A DNA stretch of 64,000 bases from Schmidtea polychroa (taxonomy: Eukaryota). This document shows positions 15,120-36,406 of this stretch, piece by piece. The notes under the pieces are model-generated. The model was given only the letters and a program-made list of their open reading frames with translations, was not told the origin of the DNA and made no database searches. Each line of letters begins with the position of its first letter. Positions within the stretch are counted from its first letter, which is position 1. The position numbers and the translations under genes are program-made. The stretch is from NCBI GenBank assembly GCA_044892525.1, contig CM097888.1, positions 68,386,001 through 68,450,000 on the forward strand, given 5' to 3'.

Positions 15120-15137
15120 TGGGGGCTCAGCCGGGAT
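15120..15137 (+). promoter_or_regulatory. Primer-binding site, tRNA-Pro-like
   Basis: TGGGGGCTCAGCCGGGAT matches the known tRNA-Pro PBS TGGGGGCTCGTCCGGGAT at 16/18; it starts 7 nt after the LTR end. Confidence 0.75.
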
Positions 15138-15454: not shown

Positions 15455-15940
15455 ATGACAGAATTCGCGAACCAAATGCAACAACTGCTCAAGTTTATCG
15501 ATATAGAAAACGACTCCCTAACAACACTGACGCATAAAAGAGAAAAAATCAACGCGATATTACTGCAAGCAATCGGACAAACACCAGTCGTACCTAATCA
15601 TATGATATTAGCCACAGGCCTAAGTCGCCCAGATGGAAAAATAAACCCCGAAACCGTATATCAGTGGTATCAAGAGAGATTGAACCACCCAACATTAAAT
15701 CTAGATTATCAGCGTCTAAAAGACTCACTAAATACAATACCAGATGCAATCGAACAAAAAATACAGGAAAAAGTTAACCAATTACGAACTTGTATAGCCT
15801 GCAAACTCCGTCCTATTCGCGTATTACTCTTGCCGTGTGGACACCTCAGTCACTGTGAAGAGTGTGTAAAAGACCTAAAAAGATGCACGATGTGCAAATA
15901 TGAAATAAAAGAGACCCATATGGTCTATTACGGCGAATGA
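15455..15940 (+). CDS. IAP-type C-terminal RING-finger protein (putative E3 ligase), no BIR domain seen
   Basis: CIAC-x9-LPCGH-x3-CEEC-x6-CTMC followed by IKETHMVYY at the C-terminus, the IAP/XIAP-like RING-HC pattern. Acceptor-like ttttccaacag ends 2 nt before the ATG. Confidence 0.85.
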   Translation: MTEFANQMQQLLKFIDIENDSLTTLTHKREKINAILLQAIGQTPVVPNHMILATGLSRPDGKINPETVYQWYQERLNHPTLNLDYQRLKDSLNTIPDAIEQKIQEKVNQLRTCIACKLRPIRVLLLPCGHLSHCEECVKDLKRCTMCKYEIKETHMVYYGE

Positions 15941-16517: not shown

Positions 16518-17071
16518 GAAGATTGAGCTGTTGAATAGTGCCAGCCAGTCGTAAGATCGAGTTGTTGAATAGTCCAACCGATCAGAAGGAAGAAGATTGA
16601 GCTGTTGAATAGTGCCAGCCAGTCGTAAGGTCGAGTTGTGAAAAGTCCAACCGATCAGGAAGGAGGAAGATTGAGCTGTTGAATAGTGCCAGCCAGTCGT
16701 AAGGTCGAGTTGTGAAAAGTCCAACCGATCAGGAAGGAGGAAGATTGAGCTGTTGAATAATGCCAGCCAGTCGTAAGGTCGAGTTGTGAAAAATCCAACC
16801 GATCAGAAAGAAGAAGATTGAGCTGTTGAATAGTGCCAGCCAGTCGTAAGGTCGAGTTGTGAAAAGTCCAACCGATCAGGAAGGAGGAAGATTGAGCTGT
16901 TGAATAGTGCCAGCCAGTCGTAAGGTCGAGTTGTTGAATAGTCCAACCGATCAGAAGGAAGAAGATTGAGCTGTTGAATAGTGCTAGCCAGTCGTAAGAT
17001 CGAGTTGTTGAATAGTCTAACCGATCAGAAGGAAGAAGATTGAGCTGTTGAATAGTGCCAGCCAGTCGTAA
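16518..17071 (+). repeat. Tandem array of ~7.5 x 74-bp units in the retroelement leader
   Basis: Units begin gaagattgagctgttgaatagt at 16518, 16592, 16666, 16740, 16813, 16887, 16961 and 17035 (partial). Each unit contains two related sub-repeats sharing G(C/T)TGTTGAATAGT. Confidence 0.95.
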
Positions 17072-18380
17072 AGGCCTAGAAAAGCGAGAGATAGCAGTTA
17101 AGCTACAATGAGATAATATTTAAATTACTAGTGATATGGAATATTAAAGCTAGCTAGAACAAATTGAATGTAATTTTGAAAATTCGAGTTTAGAGAGGAA
17201 ATAAACGAGCTCGTGGAAAAGAAAATAAGATTATAATGAAAAAGGAAAGGGAAGAAGGAAACGAATTAAAGAGATAATAGAAAATAAAGAATAGATGAAA
17301 TGATGATAATGAGTAAAGAGGAAAGTAACTAACTAATTAAAGGGATCCCAGTGAAGTAGAGAAACTCTACGGAATTTTTTTTTTTGGGTAAACCGGGAAA
17401 ATGTATTTTTACCGGTTCCAGAGTAGAACCGAGTGGGATAATAGTAAACACGAAAAGTAAAACAGCGACAACAGCGCAAAGGAATAAGAAAACGAAGGGG
17501 GGTAATAAGCAGAGACTGACAACGACCTATTTTTACTATAATTGATAACGAATAGATAATTATTACGACTTTATAGATAATTGTTACTACCCCATATAGA
17601 TAATTTAAAATCGACGGAAAATACGGGCTGATGGGATATTATAACCCGCAGAAAGGATTTCACAAAAAGATAGGGGAAGCACAAACAGAAACCTAAAAGG
17701 CGTCTGTTTTTGAATGTTGTAGAAAGAATGATGAAGTCGTGTAAGCAAATGCAACACGAGATCATTTTTTCATTTTAGATATCAAGCCAATCCAGCCAAC
17801 CAAGACAATCCAGAACCTGCACAAAAGGAATTCGAAGAAATCGACAATCAACCAAGGATAAATCCATTCAGAACCCGCACCGAGAGACACAGCAACCGGA
17901 AGACTCCAGAACGGAAGAAGTATTAGCAGCCATCTGCCAAGGATTAGTAAATCTCCTCAGGATCTCAGTAGCAGATTCATACAGAATATTTATCGAAGGA
18001 AACACAATCAGAACCGAACGCGTCCAATTCAATAGCCGCTAATTACCAAGAAGCGTAAGAAAGGAATCACGGATAAACCCAATCTTAGATCTTCTAGTAA
18101 GCCAGGAGACGTATTATTTTCAGGAGACGAATTACAACAACTCAAAAGAGGACGATCCATTAAACATCAAAGAGGAATATCACAAGGATCCAGAAGAACC
18201 AATCAAGTACCCATATTTGACCAAGAAAATCTCGGATATACCCCTAGTCGATCTCGAAGTAGAGAAAGTCTGTCCGATATCACTAATAGTTTAGCAACGT
18301 CAACCGAGGAGTTATCAGCCCAAAGTTTAGTCACATCGTTAGACAATTTAAAAGAAACAGACGAACCTAGAACACCAATC

Positions 18381-19286
18381 ATGACGAATGTCGTAAAAAC
18401 CGACGAGTATAAAGAGAAGTTCAGAGGAGAACCGTTCAACGGAAACGCAAACAAGCTAGCATCGTTCATAACTAATTTTGAAGTTTATATCACTGTGTGT
18501 GGATGGACACCCGAAGCAATTAGTAAAAGGATGCCGTTGTTTTTGTGCGATAGTGCATTAGAGGTATATTTAGAAGCTAAAGAGAGAGACACGAAATTAG
18601 AAAAGTGGGAAGATATTAAAACATTCCTGAAGAAAACCTTCGGAGCCAGTAAGCCAATCAACCAGGCGTTGGGCGAACTAGCAAATAGGAAACAAAGAGC
18701 AAACGAATCGATAACATTATATGCCAGTGAATTGCGGAGATTAGCGAAGAAAGCAATGAATGGAAAATTACCCGAAGAAAATCTGATCGGTTATTTCATA
18801 GAGGGATTACGCCGAGAAGAAGTAAGAGCCTCAGTAGGTTGTCAAATGTGCAAAACATTAGAGGAAGCCATAGATTGGGCTACAAGATGCGAGCTCCACC
18901 TTCCAGCTCAAATGAATATTATGCAAGAGGAGGGAAGGATAGCGACAGCAATAGCGAAAGCGGATAACGGAGATAACAACAATCAAGAACCGAAAATGAA
19001 TCAATTTATACCAGGAGCGCACCAAATTTTCAAACCACCACAAGGACGATCAAACGGGAATAATGGTAATCGTAACAACCCGAATAATGAGAACAATTTC
19101 AATAATCGGCGAAATATGAACGATAACAAGCAGTGCCGAACATGCGGTAAACCAGGACACTGGGACAGAGATTGTTATAGAAATTCAAATTGTAATCGTT
19201 GCGGACGGCGTGGACATACCGAAAATGTATGCCAATTGCGAGGCTGTTTTAACTGTGGTCAGCCAGGTCACATCTCCAGAGATTGC
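18381..19286 (+). other. Gag capsid-like domain and three CCHC zinc knuckles
   Basis: Retrotransposon-gag pattern (WEDIKTFLKKTF, RKQRANESITLYASELRRLA, FIEGL); knuckles CRTCGKPGHWDRDC, CNRCGRRGHTENVC and CFNCGQPGHISRDC at 19134-19286. Confidence 0.92.
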
Positions 19287-22200
19287 CGAGAAAGGGGCCA
19301 ACAACAACGACCACCACAGCGAAATAATAATTATATAGCGAATCCGCAACGACAAAGTAACCCTAACGAAGGAAAACAAATGAACGTTATGCAGGAAATT
19401 TCGCAGATGAAACAGATGATGCAACAAATGATGAGACCAAGACAAGAATCAGCACCACAACAAACCCAGAATATACGTATGATGAGGAGTACCGAAAATC
19501 TCAACAATTATGAAGTGCATCAACATGTACAAGAATGGCAAAGGCTACAGGCCGAGGAAGAGAGGATAAAACAAGAACGCAACCAACAACGACAAGAACA
19601 ACCATTGCGAATAAATATGATGAAGTTAGTAAAAGACATGAAGAGCCAGTATTGCTACAATTACGGGAAAAGCCCAAGGGTAGTACCCATGACTGAACCA
19701 GAAAAGGTAAAAGAAATAACAACGGAAATGAAAACAGAGAATTCAACCACGATTTTAAAAGGAAACCAGAGAATTCAGAAAATATTCTGGAAAAAGATAA
19801 AAGATAAAATCGAAAAAGAACATAATAAAGCGAAAGCCGAGACAGAAGATGAAAATAACAAGAGCAAGGAACAAACCAGTCAACTAAACCACCAAATGCT
19901 ACAGGAATTAGAATCAGAAGAAACAACGATATTCGAAAGAAAGAAACTAAAGAGAGTACCAAGGATGAGAAACTTGCAAATCAATATGATGAAAAGGACA
20001 AAAGATGTAGCATCGTCAGACGAGGAAGAAGACTATGTAAGTAGTTTGGGTGGAGAAATACTACAGCTGAATGAAATAAGCGAACCTCCAAAAGGGGAAA
20101 TCAAAGAGGAAGAAGGCGAAAGCGAGATAACCAGCGAAAGTGAAGACGAGGATATCGAAATAAAGTTGAGAAAAGGGAAGGAGGAAGCGATAAAACAAGT
20201 AGCGGAAATACTCCCAGTAGTAGTGAGGAACCAAGAGTTCATTGACGTAATACCATTCAGGCGATTCGTGCAAAAAGTGATGAAATTGGAAAGAAACGAG
20301 AAAGATTTAATACCAAACGAGGAAAAATCAATTATAAAAAATTATATGGAAAAAATGAAGCAGGCCGATACCACGCGGTATGTAATAAAAATCGGAACGA
20401 GTAGAGGACTTGAAAGAATGTGGATAAAAAATACAGTCACCGACGAACTTTTCGATTGGATACGAGAGCATTTGGGAAGTTCGAGAAAGAAAGAATATCT
20501 GTATCAATACCAAGGAGAACAGATCAAACCAGATATGCACTTAGTAGATGCACTAATATGGCCAGGAGAAACGCAAATACTGAAGTTGCATAAAGAAAAA
20601 CAACCAGCCAACCTTTACGATTGGGCTAAAGATGCCAAGGCAGAATATGATTTTAATATCAAATTGAAATTAGAACAAATAAAACAATGTACTCTGAGAC
20701 GAAACCTGGATAAGCTGATCAAACAAATTCAAGAACAAGTAGAAGACAACTGGGATTTACTCATCACCAGACGAGCCCCAGCCATGTACGAACTAATGAG
20801 CCGGTTGCGAGATACAGAAATGCTCCGAATGAGTGATTGGAGAACCATAAATTTGATCCACAAATATGGAAGGTTAAAAGAAACCCAGCCACAGAGGTTG
20901 GAAATAACCATATGGTTACCGAACGAAGAAAAACGACGAATAAAAATGAGCAATCAGAGTACAGTAGATGACTTGGTATCAAAAATAAACCAAGAGATAA
21001 CGGAAAAGGTACGTAGCGAAAGTAGTGATGGTATGGTGGATGATGTAGTCATGATGTACGATAAGATAATATTACGAGCGGAGGACGACACCTCGTTAAG
21101 CGAAATGGGTATGTGGGACAATCACCAGATAATCAGGATAGTACCAATGGATGAATTTCGAACAAGAGATGTAACCTATCAAAAAGAAATACGAGACCGG
21201 ATGAAAACGTTATATCAAAAATCTACGGAAATAATTAAAATCCACCAACAATGGTTAAAAGAAAAAGAACTACAAGGAAAAATCACGAAATTAAGCACCA
21301 GATCCTGCAGACGAACCCCATGGGAAAGAGTGTGGAATGCAGAAAGTAAGGAATGGGAAATCCGGAAAGGAACCTTCGTGGAAACAGACATTGGTGAGAC
21401 AGAAAGTGAATCGGAGGAAGAAGAAGAGGAACCTCCAAAATATGAAGAGGAAGCAAGGGAACAGACATCAGATGACGAAGGCGAGACGGATGTCACATCA
21501 GAAAGCGAAAATGAAGCGAGACATATTCATGCAATGAGGAAAAAGGAACGTGAATATGCTGATATGGACGGCGAGGAAGCGACGGAAGCAAGAGAACGAG
21601 AAGAGAAAGAAAGATATAAACAATTAGGCGATATCTTAGCAATGGGAGCGAAAAATCAAAGACGCCAAGTAGTAGCGTTGGCTAACATCATCTTAAAGAC
21701 ATCAGAGGACATCCACAATCTGAGAGGAATGGCAAAGGCAATAGAGGAATACCGGCAATATAATGAATGGTATCCAGAACAGCTAGAACAAATTATTCGA
21801 AAATGGAGAAATCAGGAATGGGCACAAGACACCCAGGAGAGGTATCACATCCGAATCAAGTATCCAGACAAGAGCATCGAGGAACTAGAGGTGCATCCAA
21901 CAACAAAAATTAGAGAATTAAAAAAGAAATTAGCATATGAAACTCCATTCCATCTGCAACTGTTCGGAAAATCACTAGACGATAATGCAGACGTCGGGAT
22001 AACCCCCATGAGATTGGAAGAGACAAATGTATTAACAATGGCAGAAACGTTGGGAAAACCGTTAAAAAGGAAAAGTAAAATTATTAAACCAACACAAGGC
22101 AGTTTGAGTACTCCAAGTCCGAACAAAGCACCAAGTAAATCTAATGAAACTGAAGAAGTTGAAGAGATAATCCTGGAAGATAGTGACGATGAACCAGGAG

Positions 22201-25200
22201 AAAGATCACCGCTATTAGTGAGATGGCCGACAGGAGCCGAAATGTGGACTAATAACCAGCCATCAACGAGTTATCAACAACCAACGAAACTGAACATCGA
22301 AGAAATCATCGACAATACTACGGAAACCGAAACGGATGAACAATTCCAGAAGCAAAGAGAACCAACGAAAGTAACACCAGAAAGTCAAACCGACAAAATA
22401 ATAGACGAATGGAATGAGTGGCTAAGAAATAACGATAGCTCATTACCCAGAACGGATAACGAAAGAAATCCGAATTACGAAAATACCAGAGAAGCAGGAA
22501 CGATGATGGAAAAACGGGCAAAAGGAAGACCCAAGAAACAAGGAGAAAAGTCTGAGTTCAAAACCAAAGAACAATTAAAGCAAGAACAAGGGCAAGTTCG
22601 ATTAGAAAAATTGGATAAAATAGTATGGGATCTAAAGGAAGCCCAACCAACGATCGAAAGAGGAGAAAAATGGATACGAGAATTGTTAAAAGATATGTTA
22701 ATAATAACAAACCCACAACTTAGACGTTTGTGGCAACGGAAAGTAGCCAGTACGGAAGCTAGACAATTATGGCACACCATTTCGGGGATAATCCCAAAGT
22801 TAATCAAAGAGAAAACGAAAACCACCAAAACGGATTGGGACGAAACAAAGAGAGTGATTGAGCAGCTCACGACAAATGCAAATGATGACGAGCATCACCT
22901 AGTGGTAATCACTTATTTGATGTATAATTTGATGGGACTAGCTGCGAGGAAAATACCAAATAAACAGTTTGCAAATCATGTAGAAATGACCGTTTCAATC
23001 ATAGAGAATACTATTGAACCACACATTATTCGTGCAGGAGGATGGAAAAGACTGATACAAGCGCCACGGAAAAATGAGCAAGAAAGGTCGATGCAAGTTA
23101 GATTGAAAAAACTATTAAATGAACTAGAATGGGAACTACCGATGAAAGATCCCGCAAGCAGAAAAGCATCAATAAATTCGTTAATGATGACTATGATGAT
23201 ATGGATGTTGTGCACAAGTGGAGCAACAGGTTTCACCATCTACGATTGTGATAACATGATAATGAGAGATAAATACTCATTGAGAGACATAGAAGAATGC
23301 AGACAAGCCTCACCCAACAAATTGGACATCGTGAGAACAAAAGTTACTTACCATGTATATCAAGAATCAGATTTCATCAGAACGCAAGCAAGGGAATGCG
23401 TAGTATCAAAAAAGGTACTCGCATATTACTGTGGACAATATTCGTATTCGACTCTTATACTACCCGGTCTGGATAAAGAAATCGTATCAATACAACGAGA
23501 GGATTGTAAAGAGCTATTTAGAACCGGAGCGCTAAAAATGCATAACGGAGTGACAATTCACGGACAAACTGGAATGATTAAAACCGAAAGTGTTTACGTA
23601 TCCGGAAAAGTAAAATCATCAGATGGGTCATGTAACGGAGGTACGTATACGATCCGAGGCGAGGTAATATCGGGAGTTGTAGTGATCGAGTCTTACACGG
23701 TCGAATTAAAAGAATACGAAGCGCAATTTGACGCAAATAATTACCAAATGAAGACCAACCCAACGTGTAGAGCTACAGAAAACGTATGCAGGACAGGAGT
23801 ATCAACTATAATCTATGAAGCTAATACCCAAAAATGCCGACTCCAACTGTTAAAAAGTGCTTTGTTCAATGAAGTAAAAGGAGAAATATATGAGAACGAG
23901 AACGACGAGGATGGAAACGACAGAGTGAGAATGCGAAATGGAAAACCAATGCCACCATCTCCCAGAGAAAAGAGACTTTCAACGCAGAAGACACCAACAG
24001 CATTAATCACAGACGATCCAGATCTAGGTATGAGATTTATCAAAGAGAAAGAAACCACCAAATGTGACAGTATAGTATATAAAACCAATTACGCAGGTAT
24101 CTATATGTCGAGACAAATAATCGATAGAGCAGTGGGAAAGATAGCAACGGAGGACGTAAAACTATACTTATATGCAAATAATAAAATGGATTTTCTATTT
24201 CATCGCGGACAAACGACCTTGCAAAAAGTATATTACGATCTAATACAAAACGATTGTTCATTGAATAAAGAAATATTGAAAACAAAGCTAGCTATTGCGA
24301 TAACGCACCCAGATAACACGATGCCATCACTCCCATTTCCAGATGGACACTTTGGTAGAATGGTAGGAGAAGTGATGTACACATACCAGTGTACCAAGAC
24401 GTATGCACGAATGCCAGAAAAATCCATACTACCCGAAAAGAGATGTGCAAATGAATTAGAAATCCGTTATAAAGGACAAAATCGATTCGTCCAACCAGTC
24501 ACTAGAATTATGAATCCAGTGGGTTTCTACCCAAATCTCTTTAACTGTTCTAATGCATACGGACCTTTATATGAAAGGCCCGATGGGAAATGGATGATGT
24601 TACCGGGAAAAACCATATCCGAGGAGCCCAAGAAATTTGGATTAATAGAACTCGCCACAGAGCTGGATTTCAAACCTATAGACGTGTCAAACGGTGGTAT
24701 GTATTCCCCAGAAGATCTAGAAACAGCACGACTTAACGTACTCTTCCCAGCCAGACGAGAATCCATTTTGTCTAATATGGTAACAATAACTGGGGGCACA
24801 AACTATCAATCAGGCCCGAATTACGAGCTGCTATTATCGCCAGACCATTTTCAACAAGCTACGTCAAACATGATGAAAGCAATGTGGGGAAGATTCTTAG
24901 TTTTTGGAAAAATGATGGCCGGGATATTAGGGATCATACTCATAATTCAGATAGTCAGAGTAATACTAACACAAATGTTAGCTTGTTTCGATATATACAA
25001 GCGGGAAAAGAAAGTTAATTGGAAAATGATAGTAGGCTTCTTACCATTTTTAGCTAAGACCATGGTATTACATGGCCACTCAAAAGACATTCATCGGATA
25101 AAGCGATTGATTAAAATATTAACAAAGATTAAAGGAACCGACGAGGAAGTAGGCAGACGATTCCGGAAAGTAATGTACGATGAAGCAACAAGACGACAAT

Positions 25201-28200
25201 TGAAAAAGAATAAGCCAAAATTCTTGGACCGATTTAGAAGCCAATCATCTAACAGCGATAGTGACGACGATGATAACGGGAACGATAAATGTCTTTATCC
25301 AAACAGAAACCCAAACGAAAAACCAATGGAAACGGCACCATATTGGGAAAAGGAAAAGACAAACACCTGGATCGCCAATGGAAGCTATATACCACCGGAT
25401 ATCGTGGGACCACAAACAGCTTTGACCATGACACAAAATATGTATCCGCAATTACCGAGTCAACCCGGTATGCATTATATGCCAACACGACGTACCAAAA
25501 GTGTAGATCAAGCAGAGGACGTAAGAACAATAGCAGCGATGAGTTTACCTGGAGGTCCAGCAGTAACAGTTATGATTCAAATCAATGGTAAAGAAACCAA
25601 TGCTATGATAGACACCGGAGCTAATGTATCAGCGATAGCGATTAATCAAATCCCCAGTAAACACTGGAAGGATATCGAATCAACAACAATTCACATCATA
25701 GCATGTAGTAAAGAAACAGTGGACGTGGTCGGAAGATGGTGGACTACATTGAGATACCAGGACAACGAAATTGAAACGTATTTGGCAGTAATACCAAAAC
25801 TTAGCGTACCATGCATAATCGGAACGGATTTGATGCCAGAATTGTTAAAAGAAATCGTAATTGACTTAACAACCATGTGTTTAAAAGACAAAACCGGTAG
25901 AATATGCAAAATGAATGCAGTCATCAGATGTCCAGAAAAAATAATAGTACCAGCAAAATCACAGATGATTTGTCAGATAAAAGTGGATACGGGTATGGAA
26001 GGAGAAGTTATCTTTGAACCAAGCAAGTCATTTGAAAAGCGACGAGAATTACCACTCGCAAGAGAAATAATCACAATAAACCAAGAAGGAGTGATACCGC
26101 TCAACATCACGAATTTCGAAGAGGAAGACAAAATCATTTATGAGAACGAAAAATTGGGAAGATTGACCCCAATGATGGACATAGAATTACCGAAAGTGAC
26201 CAACGAGATGATCAAAGATGATGAATTATGGACAATAGATAGTATGTTGTTGACGAATGACGAAAAGAAAAAATTGCACCGATTGTTGGTAGAATATAAA
26301 GATATATTCGCCATCTCAGATTTAGACTTGGGTACATGTGATGTTACCTTACATGCAATACCACTCATAGACGAAACCCCAATTGCATTGAGACCATACA
26401 AGCTAGCAGAAATGCAGAAAGAAATAGCCGAAACAGAAGTACAAAAGATGCTAGACGCAAAAGTAATCGAACCAAGTTGCTCACCCTGGCAATTCCCAGT
26501 GGTCATGGTAAAAAAGAAAGATGGCACCCAACGATTCTGTATCGATTATCGGAAGTTAAACGCAGTGACCAAGAGAGATACCTACCCATTGCCGGACATC
26601 AATGAGATGTTATTGATGTTGCAAGGGGCAGCATATTTTACTTCTTTAGATCTAAAAAGTGGATACTGGCAGATTAAAGTCAAAGATGAGGACAAAGAGA
26701 AAACAGCTTTTACGTTGGGACGAGATCTATATCAATTCAGGAAAATGCCATTTGGACTGACTAACGCACCAGCATCATTTCAACGGTGTATGAACTTTGT
26801 CACCCATGGAATCAAACAATGTATGGTATATATTGATGATTTACTAATCTATTCAGCGACATTTGAACAACATCTAGAAGATATCCGAAACGTATTTATT
26901 AGATTAAGACAGTGGAAACTCAAACTCAAACCATCAAAATGCGATTGGGCAAAGGAAAAAGTCACGTTTTTAGGACACATAGTGTCAGCTAAAGGAAAGG
27001 AGCCAGATCCAAGAAACATTGAGAAAATAAAAACATGTCCAGCACCGAAAACTGTCACCCAAGTTCAGGAATTTCTAGGATTATGCGGATACTATCGCAA
27101 ATTTATCAAAAATTATGCAGGAATTGCAAAACCAATCCAGGAATTAGTAAAGAAGGACATTTCGTTCTTATGGGGGAAGGAACAACAAGAGGCGTTTGAA
27201 ACGCTGAGAGACAAACTAATCGAAGCACCTATCCTCGTACACCCAGATTTTAAGAAGCCATTTCTATTGGCAACGGATGCAAGCGGGTACGCGGCAGGCG
27301 CGATTCTGGGACAATTGGACGATGAGGGAAAAGAGAGAGTAATCGGGTATTACAGTCGAACATTCAAAAAGCACGAAAAGAACTATTCGGTAACAGAACG
27401 AGAAGCATTGGCTATAATACAAGCTATCAAACACTTCCGATATTTACTATGGGGACATGAGATATGCATAACCACAGACCATCAACCATTAGTGTGGTTA
27501 GGGCAACATAAAGAAGCGTCCAGTAGACTGATGAGATGGGCCATGCAATTGCAAGAATACTCCCCATTTATAAAATTTAAAGCGGGAAGAGCAAATGCCA
27601 ACGCCGATTGTATGTCAAGATTTATTTTCCCAGATTTGGTGGATTCAGAAATGCAACGCATATGCTTAATAGTAGCGGAAGATTTGGATTTCTGTCAATT
27701 GCGAAAGGACCAACAAGAGGACGCGGAATTAAAACAAATTATCGATTATATAAAAACCGGACAGACAGATGTATATGCGAAAGACCAAAAATTAAAAGAA
27801 CATATGGATAAACACCGACACCGATATATTATAGAGAAAGATTGGTTGCTGATAATGGATGGGGAAAAACGATTAATGTGTATACCGGAAAACCGACGAA
27901 AAGAGTTACTAACGCAATATCACGATGGGAGATTGGGAGGACATATGTCATCAAAAAAGACGTTAGCAAGAATGAAACAGAAATATTTTTGGCCTACGTT
28001 AACGGAAGATGTAACCGAATGGGTAAAAAATTGTCTAACTTGTGCAACCAGGAAGAATACGGGATCGAAATGGAAAGCACCTTTAACGCCAATGCCAGTA
28101 CCAATAGAACCAATGACAATGATATCCATGGACGTAGTTGGTCCACTACCAGAGTCAGATAAAGGAAACGTTTACATTCTGGTGATCACAGACTTTCTTA

Positions 28201-31200
28201 CGAAATTCCCAGAAGCATTCGCGATGCCAGACCAAAAAGCTAAAACAATCGCAAAAATTTTGGTAGAAGAGATATGTTGCCGATATGGAACACCAAAACA
28301 AATCTTAACCGATCAGGGAACAAATTTTATGAGTGAGATAATGAGCGAAGTAACAAATTACTTCAAAATAGCAAAACTAAGAACATCTCCATACCACCCT
28401 CAAACCAATGGGATGACGGAAAGATTTAATGGAACACTTATACAAATGTTATCAAACTACGTTGACCGTCACCAACGAGATTGGGACGAATATATAAACC
28501 TATGTCTTATGGCGTACAGAATGTCGATTCACGCATCAACGAAAATGAGCCCATTCAAATTAATGTACGGAAGAGAATGTAATATGCCAATGGACCTGGA
28601 ATACCAACCACCGATATCGCAGTATATGGAGATCGATGATTATGTTACGAAATTCAAGGAAAGAATGCAAGAAATTTGGGAAACTGCGGGATTAAATATC
28701 AAGTTCTACCAGGAAAGTTATAAAGATTTACACGATCGAAAGAAAAACGTGAAGCAACATACGTTCCAAACAGGTGATTGGGTAATGATAGAAACCCCGG
28801 AATTAATTCCAGGAACCACAAAAAAGTTACAACGCAACGGAAAAGGACCATATGAGATCTTATTCGTAGGCGAAACTAATGTAAGAGTGAAATTGGTAAA
28901 TAACCCCTTTACCAGACCAATATACGTAAACGTGGCACGATGCAAATCAATTCCAAAAACAGCCACTAGTCAACCAGAAGGCCGTACATTAACCACACGT
29001 TCGCAAACCTACCGAATGAACATGATGCAACAACTCGCAGAACCGATCACTGGACGATTAGGTATCCAACCTTCAGAAGCGGAAAAGATTGTAAAAGAGG
29101 TAAAAATTAAAATACCTGGATGGGCAAAAGATCGATTAGATTTCGAAATATTAGGAGGATTATTGACGATGATCGAGAACTATGCAAATAGAGAAAGGAC
29201 ACACCCATTATTGCGAGTAGTCAAAAGCCAATGGCCAATATTATTTACAATAACAGATCATTACGGAGACACACCATTACACAAACTCATGAAAGTAGGT
29301 AACAACGAGCAAATACTAGAAACAATAGAAGCATTTCACGACTGCAAGCGATCAACAGAACAAACAAACAACCAAGGTTACACACCATTAATGATAGCCG
29401 CAAACAGAGGCAAAACAAAAGACATTATAACCGCATTACTCGATACCGGATCGAAAATAACTACACAAGACCACGAGCGGAAAAACGCTCTACATCATGC
29501 TATCAGAGGGAGAAGTACCGAGGCGTTCACGTCATTGATGGAACTACTATCATATGAGGACAATCGGGAAGTCGGAAACATGTATGATGGATTGCTAACA
29601 GCGATCAAAGAAAAACTGACGACAATTACCGGAATATTAATTACATGGAGAAATCCGATTCGAAACGATTATATGATCAACGTAAACGAAGCGTTCACGA
29701 GAGGAGAGAACACGCTGATGAGAGAAGCTATGAAAGGACATCATTTATTCGAAATCCCGAATCAATTACTAGAACGAGGGATAAAATTCACAAATCACAA
29801 AGACGAACAGTTAACAAAAAAGCGAATCGACACATTCGAAAAATCACTATTCCAATTTACTAACCAAGTACGACATAAATATTGGGAAACAGTAAGTGTG
29901 TCATATATGATGGACACGATGAATAACATCCGCGAGAATTACATGGATATTATCCAAATACTTACAGCAGAGGAACGAATCAATAATCCAAACGGAAAGA
30001 AAACGAAAATAAGGTATGAGAAATCCAGGGAATCAAAGTCAACAACGAACCAAACGGTCACAAACAACGTCATCGAAACCAAATCAATGAGTATAGATCA
30101 AGAGGCAATAATACGCAAAGCAAAAGAAGTGTTCTTTGAGGAAATGCTAGAGCTGCCAGACGAAATAATATTGTCCAAAATAATAAAAGCCGTACACACA
30201 TACGCAAGAGATCAAACCACGGGTTTAGATATCGGGAAAATCAAAACCTTCTTGCCTCGAGCATTTACGATGGTAACGAAGGATTCCCGAACACCCCTAC
30301 AACAAGCAATACTAGCTGCAAAAGAGAATAGAGCAATAACGATCATGAGAATCCTTGGGGAGATGGGCGAGGAAACCAACACGAAAAATGAACAAGGTGA
30401 AACCGCCATGATGTATGCAGCTATAACGAAAATACACCCAAAAACACTCCACATCCTACATCAATCAGGATCGAAACTAGACGAAAGGTCCAATGAAGGA
30501 AATTCCACCTTGGACTGGGCAACCATACAGCCAAACTTAGAAATGATCAGATTTATTTGCAAAAATGCGACAGAAGAAGAAGTTGAAAATATGTGCAAAA
30601 ACACATCTCAGTTTCAATGGAATACGGTACGGAAAAATCTAGAAGCAATGAAATTATTATTAACCTGGAGAGTACCACCAAATAATAAATATGCGATAAA
30701 TGTAAACGAATTCTACGAAAACGGAGAAAATGCGATGGTAAAGAATACCCTAACTAAGGGGGGGACGCCTAAAATTATTTTAATAGTATTAAATAGAGAA
30801 GACCTAAAATTCACGCAAAATCAGAACGAGCAACAACGAATTGGGAAACATCGTCGTATGCAATTGAGAGAGTTAGTTAAAGAATGGAATAGAAAGAGAC
30901 ATGCTGCAACGGGTAGAAAAGAGTTTGAATTCGAAGCAAAATTAGCAAGAAACAGAGTGCTAACAGCATATCGCAGATTATTGAACGATATAAATGTCGA
31001 GGACGACATTTTAAATGACAGCGAGGGAGATAAACACGATGACAATAACGGAAAAGACCGAAAGGAGGATAAAGAGAAAAGAGAACCGGAGGAGGGTAAA
31101 CCAGAAAACAAGGATTCGGATACGAAAAGAGAGGGAAACAGCCCGAGAACCAAGACCAAAGAGGAGGAAAAATCGAATAATGGAAAACAGAGGGTATGCC

Positions 31201-32234
31201 TACCTTTCACTAACAAAGAAATAGAGACAAATATGATATTAATGATAATTATGCTTACCATGATAGAGTTAGTAACAGCTCAGGGAGGGACGAGAACGAT
31301 AAAAGAAACCAAAGAAGCGGAGAATCAAGATAGCAAAGAGGATGAACTAAAACAAGAAAAGAGAAAGCAAGCACAAGAGCAGCAGTGGGATTTAAAGGAA
31401 GAATGGGACTTAAAGGAAAAGTGCATACTAGGAAGATGCATGTCTAGAGCGTATCAGAAATTAGTACTGATAAATGAGGACACAGAACCAATAACAGAAG
31501 TAAGAATACAAGAAGCATACCGAAATCGAGACGGGAAGAGAATAACGAACGTCAAAGGAAAAGAGGTACACCTAGGAAAAGGTGGTGAAGTAGTAATAAC
31601 GCAGATCCAACCTAGAAAAGAGCACAAAGTCTGTATTTCAAGATTAGGACCAGGTGAGAGATGCCATCAATATGTGACGCAGCAGCAGCCGCCGAAAGAA
31701 TACACGGTTTGTATCTGGAGGAATGAATCAAAAAGAGAATGCCGACGATACCCGGGGAAAAGAGGAAAGAAAAGAAAAAACCACGACGAAAAGAACGAAG
31801 GAGGAAAGCACAAGAAAACTGGTGAGGAAGCTCAGGACAACTATGTTTCGGAGGAAGAGATGGAAAAAATACAAAAGATGGCAAAGGAGGGTATGAACGA
31901 GGAAATAGCAAGAATACGGGAAATGATGAAAGGAAATGGCAAAAGAGGAAACGAGAAAAGTACAGAAGCGATATCAACATTAACAAACAAGGAAAAACCA
32001 GAGAGTATAAGCGTGAAGCAGATGATGTGGATCAGTGGGATAATAATAACAGGGGCATTCCTAATCATAACGGGGGGAACAATAAAAATAATTAAAGATA
32101 AACGACATCGCGGAGAACTAGAGATGACTCGAATCAGAAATTTCCAACATCGAGTGAAACGACCAAGTGATATCAAACAAGAACAGTGGGTGGAGGCCTG
32201 GAACGCTCAGCGCCCTCCAAACTCACGTATATAG
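18381..32234 (+). CDS. 4,617-aa single-frame polyprotein: Gag-ZnK3-Ubl3-Bcl2-like-Env-PR-RT-RH-IN-ANK-membrane protein
   Basis: Uninterrupted ORF with all catalytic motifs intact: DTG (25611), YIDD (26829), RNase H TDAS, and integrase zinc-binding plus DVVGP/DQG/ERFN. Confidence 0.97.
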   Translation: MTNVVKTDEYKEKFRGEPFNGNANKLASFITNFEVYITVCGWTPEAISKRMPLFLCDSALEVYLEAKERDTKLEKWEDIKTFLKKTFGASKPINQALGELANRKQRANESITLYASELRRLAKKAMNGKLPEENLIGYFIEGLRREEVRASVGCQMCKTLEEAIDWATRCELHLPAQMNIMQEEGRIATAIAKADNGDNNNQEPKMNQFIPGAHQIFKPPQGRSNGNNGNRNNPNNENNFNNRRNMNDNKQCRTCGKPGHWDRDCYRNSNCNRCGRRGHTENVCQLRGCFNCGQPGHISRDCRERGQQQRPPQRNNNYIANPQRQSNPNEGKQMNVMQEISQMKQMMQQMMRPRQESAPQQTQNIRMMRSTENLNNYEVHQHVQEWQRLQAEEERIKQERNQQRQEQPLRINMMKLVKDMKSQYCYNYGKSPRVVPMTEPEKVKEITTEMKTENSTTILKGNQRIQKIFWKKIKDKIEKEHNKAKAETEDENNKSKEQTSQLNHQMLQELESEETTIFERKKLKRVPRMRNLQINMMKRTKDVASSDEEEDYVSSLGGEILQLNEISEPPKGEIKEEEGESEITSESEDEDIEIKLRKGKEEAIKQVAEILPVVVRNQEFIDVIPFRRFVQKVMKLERNEKDLIPNEEKSIIKNYMEKMKQADTTRYVIKIGTSRGLERMWIKNTVTDELFDWIREHLGSSRKKEYLYQYQGEQIKPDMHLVDALIWPGETQILKLHKEKQPANLYDWAKDAKAEYDFNIKLKLEQIKQCTLRRNLDKLIKQIQEQVEDNWDLLITRRAPAMYELMSRLRDTEMLRMSDWRTINLIHKYGRLKETQPQRLEITIWLPNEEKRRIKMSNQSTVDDLVSKINQEITEKVRSESSDGMVDDVVMMYDKIILRAEDDTSLSEMGMWDNHQIIRIVPMDEFRTRDVTYQKEIRDRMKTLYQKSTEIIKIHQQWLKEKELQGKITKLSTRSCRRTPWERVWNAESKEWEIRKGTFVETDIGETESESEEEEEEPPKYEEEAREQTSDDEGETDVTSESENEARHIHAMRKKEREYADMDGEEATEAREREEKERYKQLGDILAMGAKNQRRQVVALANIILKTSEDIHNLRGMAKAIEEYRQYNEWYPEQLEQIIRKWRNQEWAQDTQERYHIRIKYPDKSIEELEVHPTTKIRELKKKLAYETPFHLQLFGKSLDDNADVGITPMRLEETNVLTMAETLGKPLKRKSKIIKPTQGSLSTPSPNKAPSKSNETEEVEEIILEDSDDEPGERSPLLVRWPTGAEMWTNNQPSTSYQQPTKLNIEEIIDNTTETETDEQFQKQREPTKVTPESQTDKIIDEWNEWLRNNDSSLPRTDNERNPNYENTREAGTMMEKRAKGRPKKQGEKSEFKTKEQLKQEQGQVRLEKLDKIVWDLKEAQPTIERGEKWIRELLKDMLIITNPQLRRLWQRKVASTEARQLWHTISGIIPKLIKEKTKTTKTDWDETKRVIEQLTTNANDDEHHLVVITYLMYNLMGLAARKIPNKQFANHVEMTVSIIENTIEPHIIRAGGWKRLIQAPRKNEQERSMQVRLKKLLNELEWELPMKDPASRKASINSLMMTMMIWMLCTSGATGFTIYDCDNMIMRDKYSLRDIEECRQASPNKLDIVRTKVTYHVYQESDFIRTQARECVVSKKVLAYYCGQYSYSTLILPGLDKEIVSIQREDCKELFRTGALKMHNGVTIHGQTGMIKTESVYVSGKVKSSDGSCNGGTYTIRGEVISGVVVIESYTVELKEYEAQFDANNYQMKTNPTCRATENVCRTGVSTIIYEANTQKCRLQLLKSALFNEVKGEIYENENDEDGNDRVRMRNGKPMPPSPREKRLSTQKTPTALITDDPDLGMRFIKEKETTKCDSIVYKTNYAGIYMSRQIIDRAVGKIATEDVKLYLYANNKMDFLFHRGQTTLQKVYYDLIQNDCSLNKEILKTKLAIAITHPDNTMPSLPFPDGHFGRMVGEVMYTYQCTKTYARMPEKSILPEKRCANELEIRYKGQNRFVQPVTRIMNPVGFYPNLFNCSNAYGPLYERPDGKWMMLPGKTISEEPKKFGLIELATELDFKPIDVSNGGMYSPEDLETARLNVLFPARRESILSNMVTITGGTNYQSGPNYELLLSPDHFQQATSNMMKAMWGRFLVFGKMMAGILGIILIIQIVRVILTQMLACFDIYKREKKVNWKMIVGFLPFLAKTMVLHGHSKDIHRIKRLIKILTKIKGTDEEVGRRFRKVMYDEATRRQLKKNKPKFLDRFRSQSSNSDSDDDDNGNDKCLYPNRNPNEKPMETAPYWEKEKTNTWIANGSYIPPDIVGPQTALTMTQNMYPQLPSQPGMHYMPTRRTKSVDQAEDVRTIAAMSLPGGPAVTVMIQINGKETNAMIDTGANVSAIAINQIPSKHWKDIESTTIHIIACSKETVDVVGRWWTTLRYQDNEIETYLAVIPKLSVPCIIGTDLMPELLKEIVIDLTTMCLKDKTGRICKMNAVIRCPEKIIVPAKSQMICQIKVDTGMEGEVIFEPSKSFEKRRELPLAREIITINQEGVIPLNITNFEEEDKIIYENEKLGRLTPMMDIELPKVTNEMIKDDELWTIDSMLLTNDEKKKLHRLLVEYKDIFAISDLDLGTCDVTLHAIPLIDETPIALRPYKLAEMQKEIAETEVQKMLDAKVIEPSCSPWQFPVVMVKKKDGTQRFCIDYRKLNAVTKRDTYPLPDINEMLLMLQGAAYFTSLDLKSGYWQIKVKDEDKEKTAFTLGRDLYQFRKMPFGLTNAPASFQRCMNFVTHGIKQCMVYIDDLLIYSATFEQHLEDIRNVFIRLRQWKLKLKPSKCDWAKEKVTFLGHIVSAKGKEPDPRNIEKIKTCPAPKTVTQVQEFLGLCGYYRKFIKNYAGIAKPIQELVKKDISFLWGKEQQEAFETLRDKLIEAPILVHPDFKKPFLLATDASGYAAGAILGQLDDEGKERVIGYYSRTFKKHEKNYSVTEREALAIIQAIKHFRYLLWGHEICITTDHQPLVWLGQHKEASSRLMRWAMQLQEYSPFIKFKAGRANANADCMSRFIFPDLVDSEMQRICLIVAEDLDFCQLRKDQQEDAELKQIIDYIKTGQTDVYAKDQKLKEHMDKHRHRYIIEKDWLLIMDGEKRLMCIPENRRKELLTQYHDGRLGGHMSSKKTLARMKQKYFWPTLTEDVTEWVKNCLTCATRKNTGSKWKAPLTPMPVPIEPMTMISMDVVGPLPESDKGNVYILVITDFLTKFPEAFAMPDQKAKTIAKILVEEICCRYGTPKQILTDQGTNFMSEIMSEVTNYFKIAKLRTSPYHPQTNGMTERFNGTLIQMLSNYVDRHQRDWDEYINLCLMAYRMSIHASTKMSPFKLMYGRECNMPMDLEYQPPISQYMEIDDYVTKFKERMQEIWETAGLNIKFYQESYKDLHDRKKNVKQHTFQTGDWVMIETPELIPGTTKKLQRNGKGPYEILFVGETNVRVKLVNNPFTRPIYVNVARCKSIPKTATSQPEGRTLTTRSQTYRMNMMQQLAEPITGRLGIQPSEAEKIVKEVKIKIPGWAKDRLDFEILGGLLTMIENYANRERTHPLLRVVKSQWPILFTITDHYGDTPLHKLMKVGNNEQILETIEAFHDCKRSTEQTNNQGYTPLMIAANRGKTKDIITALLDTGSKITTQDHERKNALHHAIRGRSTEAFTSLMELLSYEDNREVGNMYDGLLTAIKEKLTTITGILITWRNPIRNDYMINVNEAFTRGENTLMREAMKGHHLFEIPNQLLERGIKFTNHKDEQLTKKRIDTFEKSLFQFTNQVRHKYWETVSVSYMMDTMNNIRENYMDIIQILTAEERINNPNGKKTKIRYEKSRESKSTTNQTVTNNVIETKSMSIDQEAIIRKAKEVFFEEMLELPDEIILSKIIKAVHTYARDQTTGLDIGKIKTFLPRAFTMVTKDSRTPLQQAILAAKENRAITIMRILGEMGEETNTKNEQGETAMMYAAITKIHPKTLHILHQSGSKLDERSNEGNSTLDWATIQPNLEMIRFICKNATEEEVENMCKNTSQFQWNTVRKNLEAMKLLLTWRVPPNNKYAINVNEFYENGENAMVKNTLTKGGTPKIILIVLNREDLKFTQNQNEQQRIGKHRRMQLRELVKEWNRKRHAATGRKEFEFEAKLARNRVLTAYRRLLNDINVEDDILNDSEGDKHDDNNGKDRKEDKEKREPEEGKPENKDSDTKREGNSPRTKTKEEEKSNNGKQRVCLPFTNKEIETNMILMIIMLTMIELVTAQGGTRTIKETKEAENQDSKEDELKQEKRKQAQEQQWDLKEEWDLKEKCILGRCMSRAYQKLVLINEDTEPITEVRIQEAYRNRDGKRITNVKGKEVHLGKGGEVVITQIQPRKEHKVCISRLGPGERCHQYVTQQQPPKEYTVCIWRNESKRECRRYPGKRGKKRKNHDEKNEGGKHKKTGEEAQDNYVSEEEMEKIQKMAKEGMNEEIARIREMMKGNGKRGNEKSTEAISTLTNKEKPESISVKQMMWISGIIITGAFLIITGGTIKIIKDKRHRGELEMTRIRNFQHRVKRPSDIKQEQWVEAWNAQRPPNSRI
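23181..25080 (+). other. Envelope glycoprotein (chuvirus/Monjiviricetes-like class III fusogen) embedded in the polyprotein
   Basis: Hydrophobic signal LMMTMMIWMLCTSGATG, then FTIYDC...YSLRDIEEC...YQESD...ECVV...YCGQYS. Cysteine-rich ~560-aa ectodomain, furin-type REKR (23964-23975), TM MMAGILGIILIIQIVRVIL from 24912. Confidence 0.72.
25560..28960 (+). other. Pol: aspartic protease, reverse transcriptase, RNase H, integrase (Ty3/Gypsy)
   Basis: AMIDTGA; SPWQFPVVMVKKKDGTQRFCIDYRKLN; LDLKSGYWQI; MPFGLTNAPASFQR; YIDD; LATDASG; TDHQPL; H-x6-H...CLTC; DVVGP; TDQGTNF; ERFN; GKGPYEI (GPY/F). Confidence 0.97.
29256..30760 (+). other. Two ankyrin-repeat blocks fused downstream of integrase
   Basis: GDTPLHKL, GYTPLMIAA, KNALHHAI; then RTPLQQAI, GETAMMYAA, GNSTLDWA. 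Both blocks end in a related motif (LITWRNP..Y.INVNE...GEN vs LLTWRVP..YAINVNE...GEN). Confidence 0.85.
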
Positions 32235-32394: not shown

Positions 32395-32754
32395 ATGGAT
32401 CAAGGAAATAACGAAATGAACCACAATACAGTAACTGAAGAATTATGGAAGCAACAATGTGCCGTATTAGCACAATTAGTGTCCAATTTGCAAGAACAAG
32501 GACTGACGATGCACAGAAACCTGATCGAGAGTATGAACAGAGGATTTAGTTATTTGAAGATAATTGAAGACCAGAGGTTAAAAATCGAACAAATGCAAAG
32601 AGAGATAGAGAGGATAACCCAATATAGCCGTCGACAGGAAATTGAAATAGACCGAATGAGGGAGGAAGCAGAACAGACAGAAATAGAAGACTGGTCGGAA
32701 TGGCTAATGAATAGAGAGGAGAGCGGGCACGAAGCCGACTCTTCCGAACCCTAA
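32395..32754 (+). CDS. Small coiled-coil accessory protein (~119 aa)
   Basis: First ATG at 32395 within the listed ORF; heptad-rich E/Q/R sequence with the same codon style as the rest of the element. Confidence 0.6.
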   Translation: MDQGNNEMNHNTVTEELWKQQCAVLAQLVSNLQEQGLTMHRNLIESMNRGFSYLKIIEDQRLKIEQMQREIERITQYSRRQEIEIDRMREEAEQTEIEDWSEWLMNREESGHEADSSEP

Positions 32755-32839
32755 ACCAAACCTAGCTTAAAATGTAAATAATTGTAAATAAAATATCGAA
32801 CCTGTATCGATAAGAACTATTTGTACATATAATTATAGA

Positions 32840-34228
32840 ATGGATAAACGACAAAGAGAAGAGTTCAGAGAGATTGTCGAGCAAGTCCGAAAATCTACAA
32901 CGATCAGAATACACAAACATGTTATGTGCGGAATATGTGAAAAGTTGTTAAAGGAACCTCACCAAACGCAATGTGGATGCAGAGTATGTAAAGAATGTAT
33001 CAGTGAAGCAATAAAGAATAGACCACAGAGGTGCCCGGTGTGTAAAGAGACACTAATATCGAGTTTAGAAGACACTAACGAGGATAAAGCCGCAGTGAAA
33101 GACATGTTAAACACCAACCTGGGATGCAAAAATGCCCCATGCGAATGGAAAGGAGTAATATGGAAGGTAGTACAACATATGGGAGAATGTATGTACAGAA
33201 TTGGCCAGTGTGAAAGGTGCCATAAAACCATTCGAGCAAGCGAAGAAAAAGAGCATCAAAGGCAGTGTGAAGAGAGATTGGAAAGATGTGAACACTGTGG
33301 AGAAATAGATACGTGGATAAATCTCACCCTCAAACATCACAATGTCCAAGAGGAGAGAGTATGTGCAGAGTTCAGTGGGGAATGCCCAAACGGATGTAAC
33401 CAAGGGGAAATAATGAAGGTGGCACAGCATCTAAGGGAATGCGCAAAGAAAAGAATGACATGTGTACTAGGTAGATGGGGTTGTCAGAAACTACTACACC
33501 GAGGTGAGTTACCACATCATTTAGTAGAAAATGCTTCAACTCACGCAGAAATGTGGTCGACTGCGCTACAAGAAAGCGAAGAGAAAGTAAAACAAATGGA
33601 GATAGAGATAACATCGTTGAAAGTGTTAGTCAAAGAACTACTAGAAGAAAGGGAAGCGTTCGAAGAAGCCCGAGCAAACATAAAGATGCAAATAAACCGA
33701 ACAGAAATCAGTAATAATCAGGCCAAGGAGCTACATCAGAAAATACGGGAAATAAATCTAAATGAGATAACCCCAACAGCACCCTACATATGGAAAATAA
33801 CGGGAGTAAAAGAAAGAATACGAAAAGCAAAAACCGGAGAAGAGACAAGAATAACAAGTCCTACATTCCATTCTTGGAAAAATGGGTACAAAATGAAAAT
33901 GAAGGTATATCCCAACGGGGACGGAACCGGATTGGATACGCACTTTTCGATTTTCTTTCTGTTATGTAAAGGAGAATACGACGAAATATTAGAATGGCCG
34001 TTCCAGGCAAAAATCGATATTACTCTGATGAACAACCAAAGTATACATGAGCAAAGCTTCAAAACAACGGGGAATCAAATAGCTTACCAGAGGCCCCTCA
34101 ACGAAGAAGGATCAGCAACAGGAGCACCTACGTTCATCTCACAACAAAGAGTAGAAGATATGGCGAGAAATGATACCATATATATCAAGATGACCGTGAG
34201 GAAAGAGGAGAAGGGTAGAACGGAGTAA
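32840..34228 (+). CDS. Full-length intronless TRAF-family protein (RING, TRAF zinc fingers, coiled coil, MATH), TRAF2/3/5-like
   Basis: RING CGIC..LLKEPHQTQCGCRVCKEC..CPVC; zinc fingers CKNAPCEWKG...H..EC, CEHC, CPNGC; MATH YIWKI...SPTF...GYKMKMKVYPNGDGTGLDTHFSIFF..KGEYDEILEWPF...NDTIYIK. Confidence 0.95.
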   Translation: MDKRQREEFREIVEQVRKSTTIRIHKHVMCGICEKLLKEPHQTQCGCRVCKECISEAIKNRPQRCPVCKETLISSLEDTNEDKAAVKDMLNTNLGCKNAPCEWKGVIWKVVQHMGECMYRIGQCERCHKTIRASEEKEHQRQCEERLERCEHCGEIDTWINLTLKHHNVQEERVCAEFSGECPNGCNQGEIMKVAQHLRECAKKRMTCVLGRWGCQKLLHRGELPHHLVENASTHAEMWSTALQESEEKVKQMEIEITSLKVLVKELLEEREAFEEARANIKMQINRTEISNNQAKELHQKIREINLNEITPTAPYIWKITGVKERIRKAKTGEETRITSPTFHSWKNGYKMKMKVYPNGDGTGLDTHFSIFFLLCKGEYDEILEWPFQAKIDITLMNNQSIHEQSFKTTGNQIAYQRPLNEEGSATGAPTFISQQRVEDMARNDTIYIKMTVRKEEKGRTE

Positions 34229-34366
34229 CCAATCGAATAATGTTGTATATAATAATCTGTATATATCGGTGTATATAACCAATAAAATATTATATAATAA
34301 TAGTATGAAAACCCTAAATACGAAAACCCAAAAATGATGCGAAAATTTCCCAAGAAACAGTAAATA

Positions 34367-35476: not shown

Positions 35477-35524
35477 GGGTGGATGAAAAGATGAAAAACT
35501 AAAAACCGGGACGTATATCCCAAA

Positions 35525-35525
<1 letters not shown>

Positions 35526-35555
<30 letters not shown>
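35526..35555 (+). repeat. A30 tract inside the element
   Basis: 30 consecutive A, 49 nt after the stop of ORF 34367-35476. Confidence 0.9.
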
Positions 35556-35557
<2 letters not shown>

Positions 35558-35613
35558 AAAGTATTGTAAAAGTATTCAAGGGACTGTAACCCAAACTATT
35601 AAATTTTATATCA

Positions 35614-36366: not shown

Positions 36367-36406
36367 ATTAAGGGTCATTAAAACCAATTGTAAATAAACA
36401 TAATGA

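Follow-up and report, generated by a model that had tools for sequence, protein, structure and literature searches.

The window, a stretch of 64,000 nucleotides of Schmidtea polychroa DNA, contains on its plus strand a reading frame from 18381 to 32234 which comprises 13,854 nt, i.e., 4,617 codons plus the stop codon, and has no internal stop. A sequence-only reading had proposed that this frame codes for a retroelement polyprotein threaded through a membrane. The locus raises the question whether such a frame is a functional gene and, if so, where its translation starts, how its product is placed at the membrane and how the parts are released. Based on sequence comparison we suggest, with a probability of about 0.75, that the product is one polyprotein which would pass four times through the ER membrane, with cleavage by the host signal peptidase in the lumen and by the element's own protease in the cytosol.

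The element and its reading frame

The frame is the single main gene of a young, recently active, many-copy, Burro-like Ty3/Gypsy element. Besides the parts of the polyprotein, the following features were assigned:

11271–41143, plus strand: whole LTR element, 29,873 bp
11267–11270 and 41144–41147: target-site duplication CTAA, 4 bp, flanking the element
11271–15112, plus strand: 5′ LTR, 3,842 bp, TG...CA
15120–15137, plus strand: primer-binding site, complementary to the 3′ end of tRNA-Pro(TGG)
15455–15940, plus strand: RING accessory ORF, 161 aa, C-terminal C3HC4 RING (PF13920, E=8e-11)
16518–17071, no strand assigned: tandem array in the leader, 7.5 copies of 74 nt
18381–32234, plus strand: main ORF, 4,617 aa when counted from the first AUG and 4,721 aa with the ACG discussed below as start
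32395–37075, plus strand: five 3′ accessory ORFs (32395, 32840, 34367, 35668, 36422), each with a YAG 1–6 nt before its AUG
32840–34228, plus strand: TRAF-like accessory ORF, 462 aa, with RING, coiled coil and MATH (PF21355, E=2e-27)
37302–41143, plus strand: 3′ LTR, 3,842 bp

Several traits of the Metaviridae are present, namely the order PR-RT-RNase H-IN, TG...CA LTRs, a target-site duplication, a tRNA primer site and a Ty3-type capsid. Both LTRs differ by one mismatch in 3,842 bases, and tRNA-Pro(TGG) genes matching the primer-binding site are present in the same genome. A tandem array of tRNA-Pro(TGG) with 475-bp spacing is located at G000:C1, about 130.90–130.95 Mb, and genome-wide there are 2,164 pattern matches. 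Seven bases (15113–15119) separate the 5′ LTR from the primer site, and a similar TGATT precedes the 3′ LTR (37296–37301); no clear polypurine tract was seen before the 3′ LTR.

The separate accessory ORFs code for one RING protein, one TRAF-like protein and four others. The TRAF-like gene is complete and intronless and is kept in a second subfamily of the element described below (462 aa in both); a 250-codon ORF inside each LTR (13826–14578 and 39857–40609) has a counterpart of 254 aa in the same subfamily. The search for a BIR domain covered seven element ORFs and one small ORF and gave no match. Outside the element the window contains an ARMT1-like exon (8381–9160, plus strand), a lactate/malate dehydrogenase exon (47117–48382, minus strand) and a DUF4371/zf-C2H2_12 transposase-like ORF (50243–52147, minus strand).

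The main ORF can be divided into the following parts, all on the plus strand:

18432–19289: Gag, Ty3-type capsid and three CCHC knuckles
21849–21953: ubiquitin-like (Ubl) unit, weak (PF00240, E=0.0047, below cut-off)
22830–23045: Bcl-2-like segment, weak (Pfam E=0.04 and E=0.024, below cut-off)
23166–23231: internal signal peptide 1, predicted cleavage after ...SGATG
23232–24884: Env ectodomain, predicted class III fusogen (PF24664, E=8e-70)
24912–24968: Env transmembrane anchor TM1, KD 2.53
25014–25070: kinked hydrophobic segment after TM1, conserved, probably on the cytosolic membrane surface
25569–28940: Pol, with aspartic protease (DTG), RT (YIDD), RNase H and integrase
29304–30752: two ankyrin-repeat modules (Pfam)
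31233–31280: internal signal peptide 2, KD 1.78, predicted cleavage after ...ELVTA
31281–32018: second predicted luminal domain, beta-rich core and charged stalk
32019–32084: TM2, with a segment at 32037 of KD 1.94 and a basic 49-residue tail after it

The order is Gag, Ubl/Bcl-2-like cargo, signal, predicted class III fusogen, transmembrane segment, PR-RT-RH-IN, ankyrins, signal, predicted luminal domain and transmembrane segment, and the Pfam matches, which run from Gag to the ankyrins, agree with the earlier claim of Gag, Env and Pol with ankyrins in this order. The capsid is matched by PF03732 (E=1e-11, above cut-off) and PF19259 (E=4e-6, just below cut-off). Two additional units are Ubl-like by eye only, the Bcl-2-like segment had no real match among PDB sequences, and the region 25890–26300 between PR and RT, scanned for a dUTPase-like insert, gave no Pfam match at E≤1. 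Distant relatives vary in this layout: P0002, P0003, P0005 and P0006 have two to three aspartic-protease copies, the extra ones before the usual PR and/or after the integrase, and in P0004 the ankyrins are placed before PR.

Translation of 18381–32234 bears out that there are 4,617 codons without stop or frameshift, and counted from stop to stop the frame is longer than the AUG-started ORF (18036–32234, 4,732 codons). With a stop probability of 0.068 per codon, as given by the base composition, the chance of such a frame corresponds to a log10 P of about −142, and the remaining two plus-strand frames contain 459 and 240 stops, so that a chance origin is excluded. A DNA search of the genome yielded 611 candidates, the best 40 of which are 99–100% identical. 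Ten copies were picked across the best 40 Env matches: seven are open over the whole ORF without stop or frameshift, and the remaining three are one without the aligned 3.8-kb pol part, one with a stop and one with a stop and a frameshift. Among the 150 matches scored (the best 150 of 1,878 protein candidates, window included), 59 have exactly 4,732 codons and 67 have at least 4,700. Since these other copies are open too, an assembly accident is excluded as well. The second subfamily has ~80% DNA identity and frames of about 4,810 codons (4,808–4,817). That the ORF is a chance or assembly product of a single copy has practically no probability and is refuted, as the frame is kept in dozens of independent insertions and in the second subfamily, and as four full-length relatives from other data sets (Env 37–39% identical, among 2,800 candidates) are single proteins of 3,700–4,057 aa.

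The whole frame from Gag to the last transmembrane segment is conserved and under selection. Compared with one copy of the second subfamily, pN/pS (uncorrected proportions) amounts to 0.01–0.35 in 22 of 22 ORF regions; among the regions thus under purifying selection are the two signals, the ankyrins and also the luminal domain at the end (pN/pS 0.13). The 5′ motif is found by pattern match in at least 218 genome copies. A search of the same genome for a further diverged family with the relative P0029 as query gave 131 scored matches, all from the same two subfamilies.

Start of translation and messages

The N-terminus had been placed at the first AUG at 18381. This is too short, as coding begins at least 86 and probably 104 codons upstream:

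18069–18380, plus strand: coding extension, 104 codons, likely start ACG 18069, with A at −3 and G at +4

Judging from the comparison of copies, we consider ACG 18069 to be the probable start codon, with fair confidence. In the second subfamily the protein sequence of the 104 codons upstream of AUG 18381 is conserved. In a comparison of the window with 12 loci, the 312 nt that begin with ACG 18069 had third-position bias and only in-frame gaps but for one decayed copy; the 290 nt before the ACG had no third-position bias, and frameshifting gaps in diverged loci. Third-position changes account for 63 of 110 downstream of the ACG versus 59 of 187 upstream (seven-sequence alignment). An in-frame stop is present three codons before the ACG in 4 of the 12 loci, and the codon before the ACG varies, the ACG does not. 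Start-codon pattern searches gave ACG in 217 of 218 copies, ACC in one, and ATG, AAG or AGG in none; because the copies are related, this corresponds to far fewer independent events. In addition, the LRS motif after the ACG recalls the N-termini of P0002 and P0022. The AUG-free leader was rejected as support for the ACG: there is no ATG in 601 nt, yet 44 of 500 dinucleotide shuffles equal this. No RNA structure was found downstream of the ACG (z=+1.0).

It is a serious possibility, at somewhat below even odds, that the N-terminus does not come from the ACG and is either supplied by an upstream AUG exon spliced to an acceptor at 18123 or begins at AUG 18381 alone. All 10 sequences compared have an acceptor-like TTTTCAG at 18123, and 9 of the 10 have a GT 13–14 nt before the ACG; the lowest synonymous variation of the ORF is at 18096–18186 (nominal p=1e-4), codon bias is weaker over the 60 nt that follow the ACG (5/3/8) than beyond, and every intact lineage retains an in-frame AUG at +312 to +321. 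However, the in-frame stops before the ACG and the invariant ACG after a variable codon argue against both variants. The spliced exon, the main rival, is doubtful, as joining the nearby GT to 18123 gives no consistently open, AUG-bearing frame across lineages, while a distant donor to 18123 is possible. A start at AUG 18381 alone is quite unlikely because of the excess of third-position changes downstream of the ACG.

The leader also contains an AUG-less frame of ~60 codons with conserved residues (about 17900–18042 in the window, and loci L037–L044), which is possibly an upstream ORF. It stops 27–48 nt before the ACG in all lineages compared, the lineage of the window is without 57 nt of it, and several lineages have, near its start, an ACG flanked by A at −3 and G at +4.

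Viral starts at non-AUG codons include AAV VP2 and Sendai C′ (ACG) and MLV glyco-Gag (CUG). As in these cases, the putative start ACG 18069 is a near-cognate codon upstream of an in-frame AUG which would give an N-terminally extended form; unlike in these cases, an entire polyprotein of 4,721 aa would begin with it. No report of a near-cognate start for a retrotransposon gag was found in the literature searched. If the ACG start is true, annotations based on the first AUG miss ~100 residues of Gag.

Contigs of four runs of uncertain type span the whole ORF (all 30 bins in 4 of 4 runs). Among 15 of the 23 contig joints there is no GT..AG joint inside the ORF, bearing in mind that such contigs indicate neither level nor strand and cannot prove absence. 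The window has 18 candidate −1 slippery sites; six were checked over seven lineages and none is kept in all, the candidate at 22052 being kept in five of the six lineages covered. Since the six slippery sites checked include none kept in all lineages and the 15 joints none of GT..AG type within the ORF, equimolar synthesis of Gag, Env and Pol is the default reading, and particle ratios could be set by turnover. The 1:1 stoichiometry proposed earlier concerns synthesis, not particles.

Alternatively, spliced or prematurely ended messages might yield unequal Gag, Env and Pol, with the full-length polyprotein as a minor product, which we regard as unlikely. The retrotransposon copia makes a spliced gag RNA, and the element described here seems to splice as well: a YAG is found 1–6 nt before the AUG in seven of seven accessory ORFs (13820, 15452, 32392, 32838, 34360, 35665, 36417), within AT-rich spacer, and the second subfamily also has an AG within 6 nt before the matching AUGs. 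This points to a polycistronic message that undergoes cis-splicing or spliced-leader trans-splicing; expression of the accessory ORFs probably relies on separate spliced messages. Contigs of two runs have a 52-nt GT..AG skip in the leader (17947–17998), 406 YAG sites occur within the ORF, some of them T-rich and conserved, and the ORF contains conserved AATAAA hexamers, the one at 19610 just after NC in six of seven lineages. On the other hand, the joints inspected include none of GT..AG type within the ORF, the AATAAA hexamers fall on conserved I-N/I-K codons, the strand being rich in A, and the module of AT-rich spacer, acceptor and AUG is absent before Env or Pol. Even if such messages were made, Env translated from the ORF would still need signal 1, and Pol would still follow TM1.

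Membrane segments and candidate proteolytic sites

The sequence-only reading had named five hydrophobic segments, and all five are present on our hydropathy scan; the topology calls rest on home-made, rough hydropathy scales. The scan and the retention of both signal–transmembrane pairs in distant relatives support the proposed arrangement of cytosolic Gag, luminal Env, cytosolic Pol and ankyrins, and luminal C-terminal part. Signal 1 contains a segment at 23184 of KD 1.27 with 26 uncharged residues. The best 28 relatives (P0002–P0029) were scanned for topology; 19 have the Env N-terminus in a longer or signal-bearing chain, eight are fragments and one is a free glycoprotein. A hydrophobic signal lies directly before Env in all 19 relatives with an Env N-terminus, and small residues are present at −1 and −3 of the first signal in 19 of 20 cases (relatives and window). 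Env runs in frame into PR or RT in 13 of the 28, the others being fragments or free glycoproteins.

The Pfam match of Env is the Monjiviricetes fusion glycoprotein (E=8e-70), and Env matches 1,051 proteins of a representative library, 150 of them listed. In 87 Env sequences 14 cysteines are conserved at ≥90%. Compared with the PDB, the structure model (pLDDT 84) resembles herpes gB (E=2e-13), and it also matches chuvirus/xinmovirus glycoproteins, with E=4e-39 for chuvirus G; because of these matches we predict that Env is a class III fusogen of the herpes gB / chuvirus G type.

The hydrophobic segment near 25020, counted earlier among the membrane segments, is likely no transmembrane segment. 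At 25014 it has KD 1.31 and only 10 uncharged residues in a row between lysines, and in the Env model it forms two helices broken at G-F-L-P, which we liken to the cytoplasmic helices of gB. The segment likely lies as a helix pair on the cytosolic face of the membrane, because as a span it would place RT and IN in the lumen, at odds with more than 200 young insertions. If it were nevertheless a true span, Env would be a multi-pass protein with a hidden span or mixed topology, and the four-crossing map would be wrong in detail. We consider this very unlikely, although the segment is conserved and is hydrophobic in relatives and free viral glycoproteins. Its rough dG is 1.6–3.6 in several relatives, in some near the scores of real spans (P0018 1.6, P0004 2.7, compared with 2.6 for TM1 of P0002), and according to the accessible text of PMC13524379 some gB-type ectodomains are flanked by two transmembrane domains. 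The short uncharged stretch between lysines and the broken helices, as well as the recent insertions, speak against a span; the parity of signal 2 also requires a cytosolic Pol. Further observations which count against four crossings are the modest signal 1 of the window (KD 1.27), the single clear N-glycosylation sequon in the Env ectodomain, and the two and three hydrophobic segments before Env in P0022 and P0018, respectively.

The second signal–anchor pair of the favored four-crossing map is kept as well: in seven of the seven relatives that reach past the integrase (of the 28 scanned), another signal is followed by a luminal part and a transmembrane segment. These sequence features support the C-terminal part being a second type I membrane protein. 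Its description as FN3-like holds weakly for the relatives and stays unproven for the protein of the window. Six units of relatives, selected by an FN3-like motif, gave a profile that matches mostly FN3 proteins in the PDB (best E=0.0016). The window's own domain has a loose E-F loop-like motif only; it was not matched by a nine-unit relative profile, and hhalign gave a probability of 0.1 to the relatives. Its structure model, of poor quality (pLDDT 42), gave no fold match at E≤0.001, no homologs of the C-terminal 344 aa were found at E≤0.1 among 3,746 candidates of 189–602 aa, and an Atlas search with the domain returned no usable match.

The claim that both signal peptidase and the element's own protease are needed gains support from the −3/−1 pattern in 19 of 20 first signals and from a candidate protease-site motif that occurs in predicted cytosolic parts only. 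The motif [MI][NR][MIV]M is found six times versus 0.4 times in shuffles, five times in the Gag region and once after the integrase. With broader versions, further sites appear on either side of PR and ahead of IN, and 0 of 28 broad-motif matches fall within the 797 predicted luminal residues. The sites are located at the CA/NC, PR, RH/IN and IN/ANK borders, persist across seven lineages with conservative changes and resemble Ty3/gypsy cleavage sites. As the motif was defined after inspection of the sequence, its p-values are inflated; the pattern is supporting evidence for cytosolic cleavage by the element's protease, not proof.

Proposed maturation and related elements

We suggest the following course of polyprotein synthesis and processing. 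Translation would start at ACG 18069 and possibly, by leaky scanning, at AUG 18381 too. Gag and the cargo would be made in the cytosol until signal 1 opens translocation and is cleaved on the luminal side. Like the capsid anchor of flaviviruses, a cleaved signal that stays behind as an anchor, signal 1 would remain as the anchor of the Ubl/Bcl-2-like piece. The predicted gB-like ectodomain would fold in the lumen and TM1 would stop the transfer; the 25020 helices are predicted on the cytosolic face, with PR-RT-IN-ANK hanging from the Env tail. If the motif sites are right, Pol would be held there until it is cut at IAAM. Signal 2 and TM2 would give rise to the second type I membrane protein, and the protease would free CA, NC, cargo, PR, RT, IN and ANK at Met-rich sites (MNIM, INMM, IAAM). 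More speculatively, assembly may take place at the ER membrane and yield enveloped particles with two surface proteins, and an excess of Gag, if any, may arise post-translationally by turnover or selective packaging.

Single-ORF strategies of this kind have precedents. In flaviviruses and alphaviruses, one ORF with internal signal peptides gives a polyprotein on which host signal peptidase acts from the luminal side and a viral protease from the cytosolic side, and the products are synthesized in equimolar amounts. The likeness to the element, with its single ORF, predicted internal signals and two predicted compartments of proteolysis, is one of analogy only: unlike these viruses, the element reverse-transcribes and integrates, its protease is of the aspartic type and its predicted fusogen belongs to class III. 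The fission-yeast element Tf1 also has a single-ORF gag-pol with equimolar synthesis, and its Gag excess is brought about by degradation. Unlike Tf1, the element described here has an envelope and, as predicted, membrane crossings.

The element is a real, intact, Burro-like GAG-ENV-POL element, and the in-frame gag-env-pol layout as such is already published for planarian Burro elements (accessible parts of PMC6431247 and PMC13524379). According to section 7 of PMC6431247 (Arkhipova and Yushenova 2019), Burro elements are >30 kb long, have ORFs of 4,873 and 5,140 aa with env in frame between gag and pol, and carry the same cargo as the element here. The TRAF part is described there as lying inside ORF1 in S. 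mediterranea and upstream in D. tigrina, and a dUTPase-like insert between PR and RT as found with HHpred (PMC6431247). The element of the window is similar in size (29,873 bp, ~30 kb), in its one ORF of 4,617–4,721 aa (near 5,000), in its copy number (at least 218 copies of the 5′ motif) and, going by the published description, in its ankyrin repeats and MATH/TRAF cargo. Burro has Ubl and BCL2-like motifs before env; here weak matches below the Pfam cut-offs are found at the expected place. Unlike in Burro, TRAF is a separate downstream ORF; the Pfam scan at 25890–26300 matched no dUTPase. The element is not filed as Burro1 / GYPSM1, because the BIR (B-IAP) was not found in the ORFs scanned. 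Section 7 of PMC6431247 makes no mention of signal peptides, topology, a second membrane protein, cleavage sites or the start codon.

Errantiviruses of the gB type with the order GAG-ENV-POL are reported from Nematoda, Bryozoa and Platyhelminthes, including Smed_errantivirus_1-6 (Chary and Hayashi 2026, PMC13524379, accessible text), and the cysteine-bridge class of the S. mediterranea elements is given as C1a. With these the element shares the Ty3/gypsy pol, a class III gB-like Env (here from the predicted model) before pol and an ectodomain flanked by a signal peptide or transmembrane segment; judged by eye, its Env is nearest to Smed_errantivirus_5. The accessible text of PMC13524379 contains 'polyprotein', 'fibronectin' and 'single ORF' zero times each, has no treatment of a membrane-threaded polyprotein and does not describe a post-integrase membrane protein. 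In the literature covered, neither the two-signal topology nor the second membrane protein nor the ACG start was found to be described; Grohme 2018, Sacco 2022 and Lee 2026 may contain them. Of ten clusters of distant relatives, one carries the label of a bacterial MAG protein and was taken for a mis-binned contig.

According to the accessible parts of the literature, Burro1 is expressed in planarians (PMC8532177) and has been reported to aid stem-cell survival (cited in PMC13465017). Only tentatively, and with the odds against it, do we extend the proposed scheme to Burro-type elements in general. These would then be enveloped retroviruses with an ACG-started, ER-woven polyprotein of 4,721 residues that gives rise to the capsid, membrane-anchored Bcl-2-like and ankyrin cargo, an Env-tethered Pol and two separate surface proteins, one the class III fusogen and the other serving attachment; neither frameshifting nor splicing would set Gag:Pol. 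In retroviruses and the known errantiviruses, Env has a message of its own, and Pol is kept low through frameshift or readthrough. A retroelement made as one membrane-crossing chain must solve the site of assembly, the timing of the protease and the stoichiometry differently. The predicted map with its two signals, two anchors, protease sites and ACG start turns the published gene order into specific tests in planarians.
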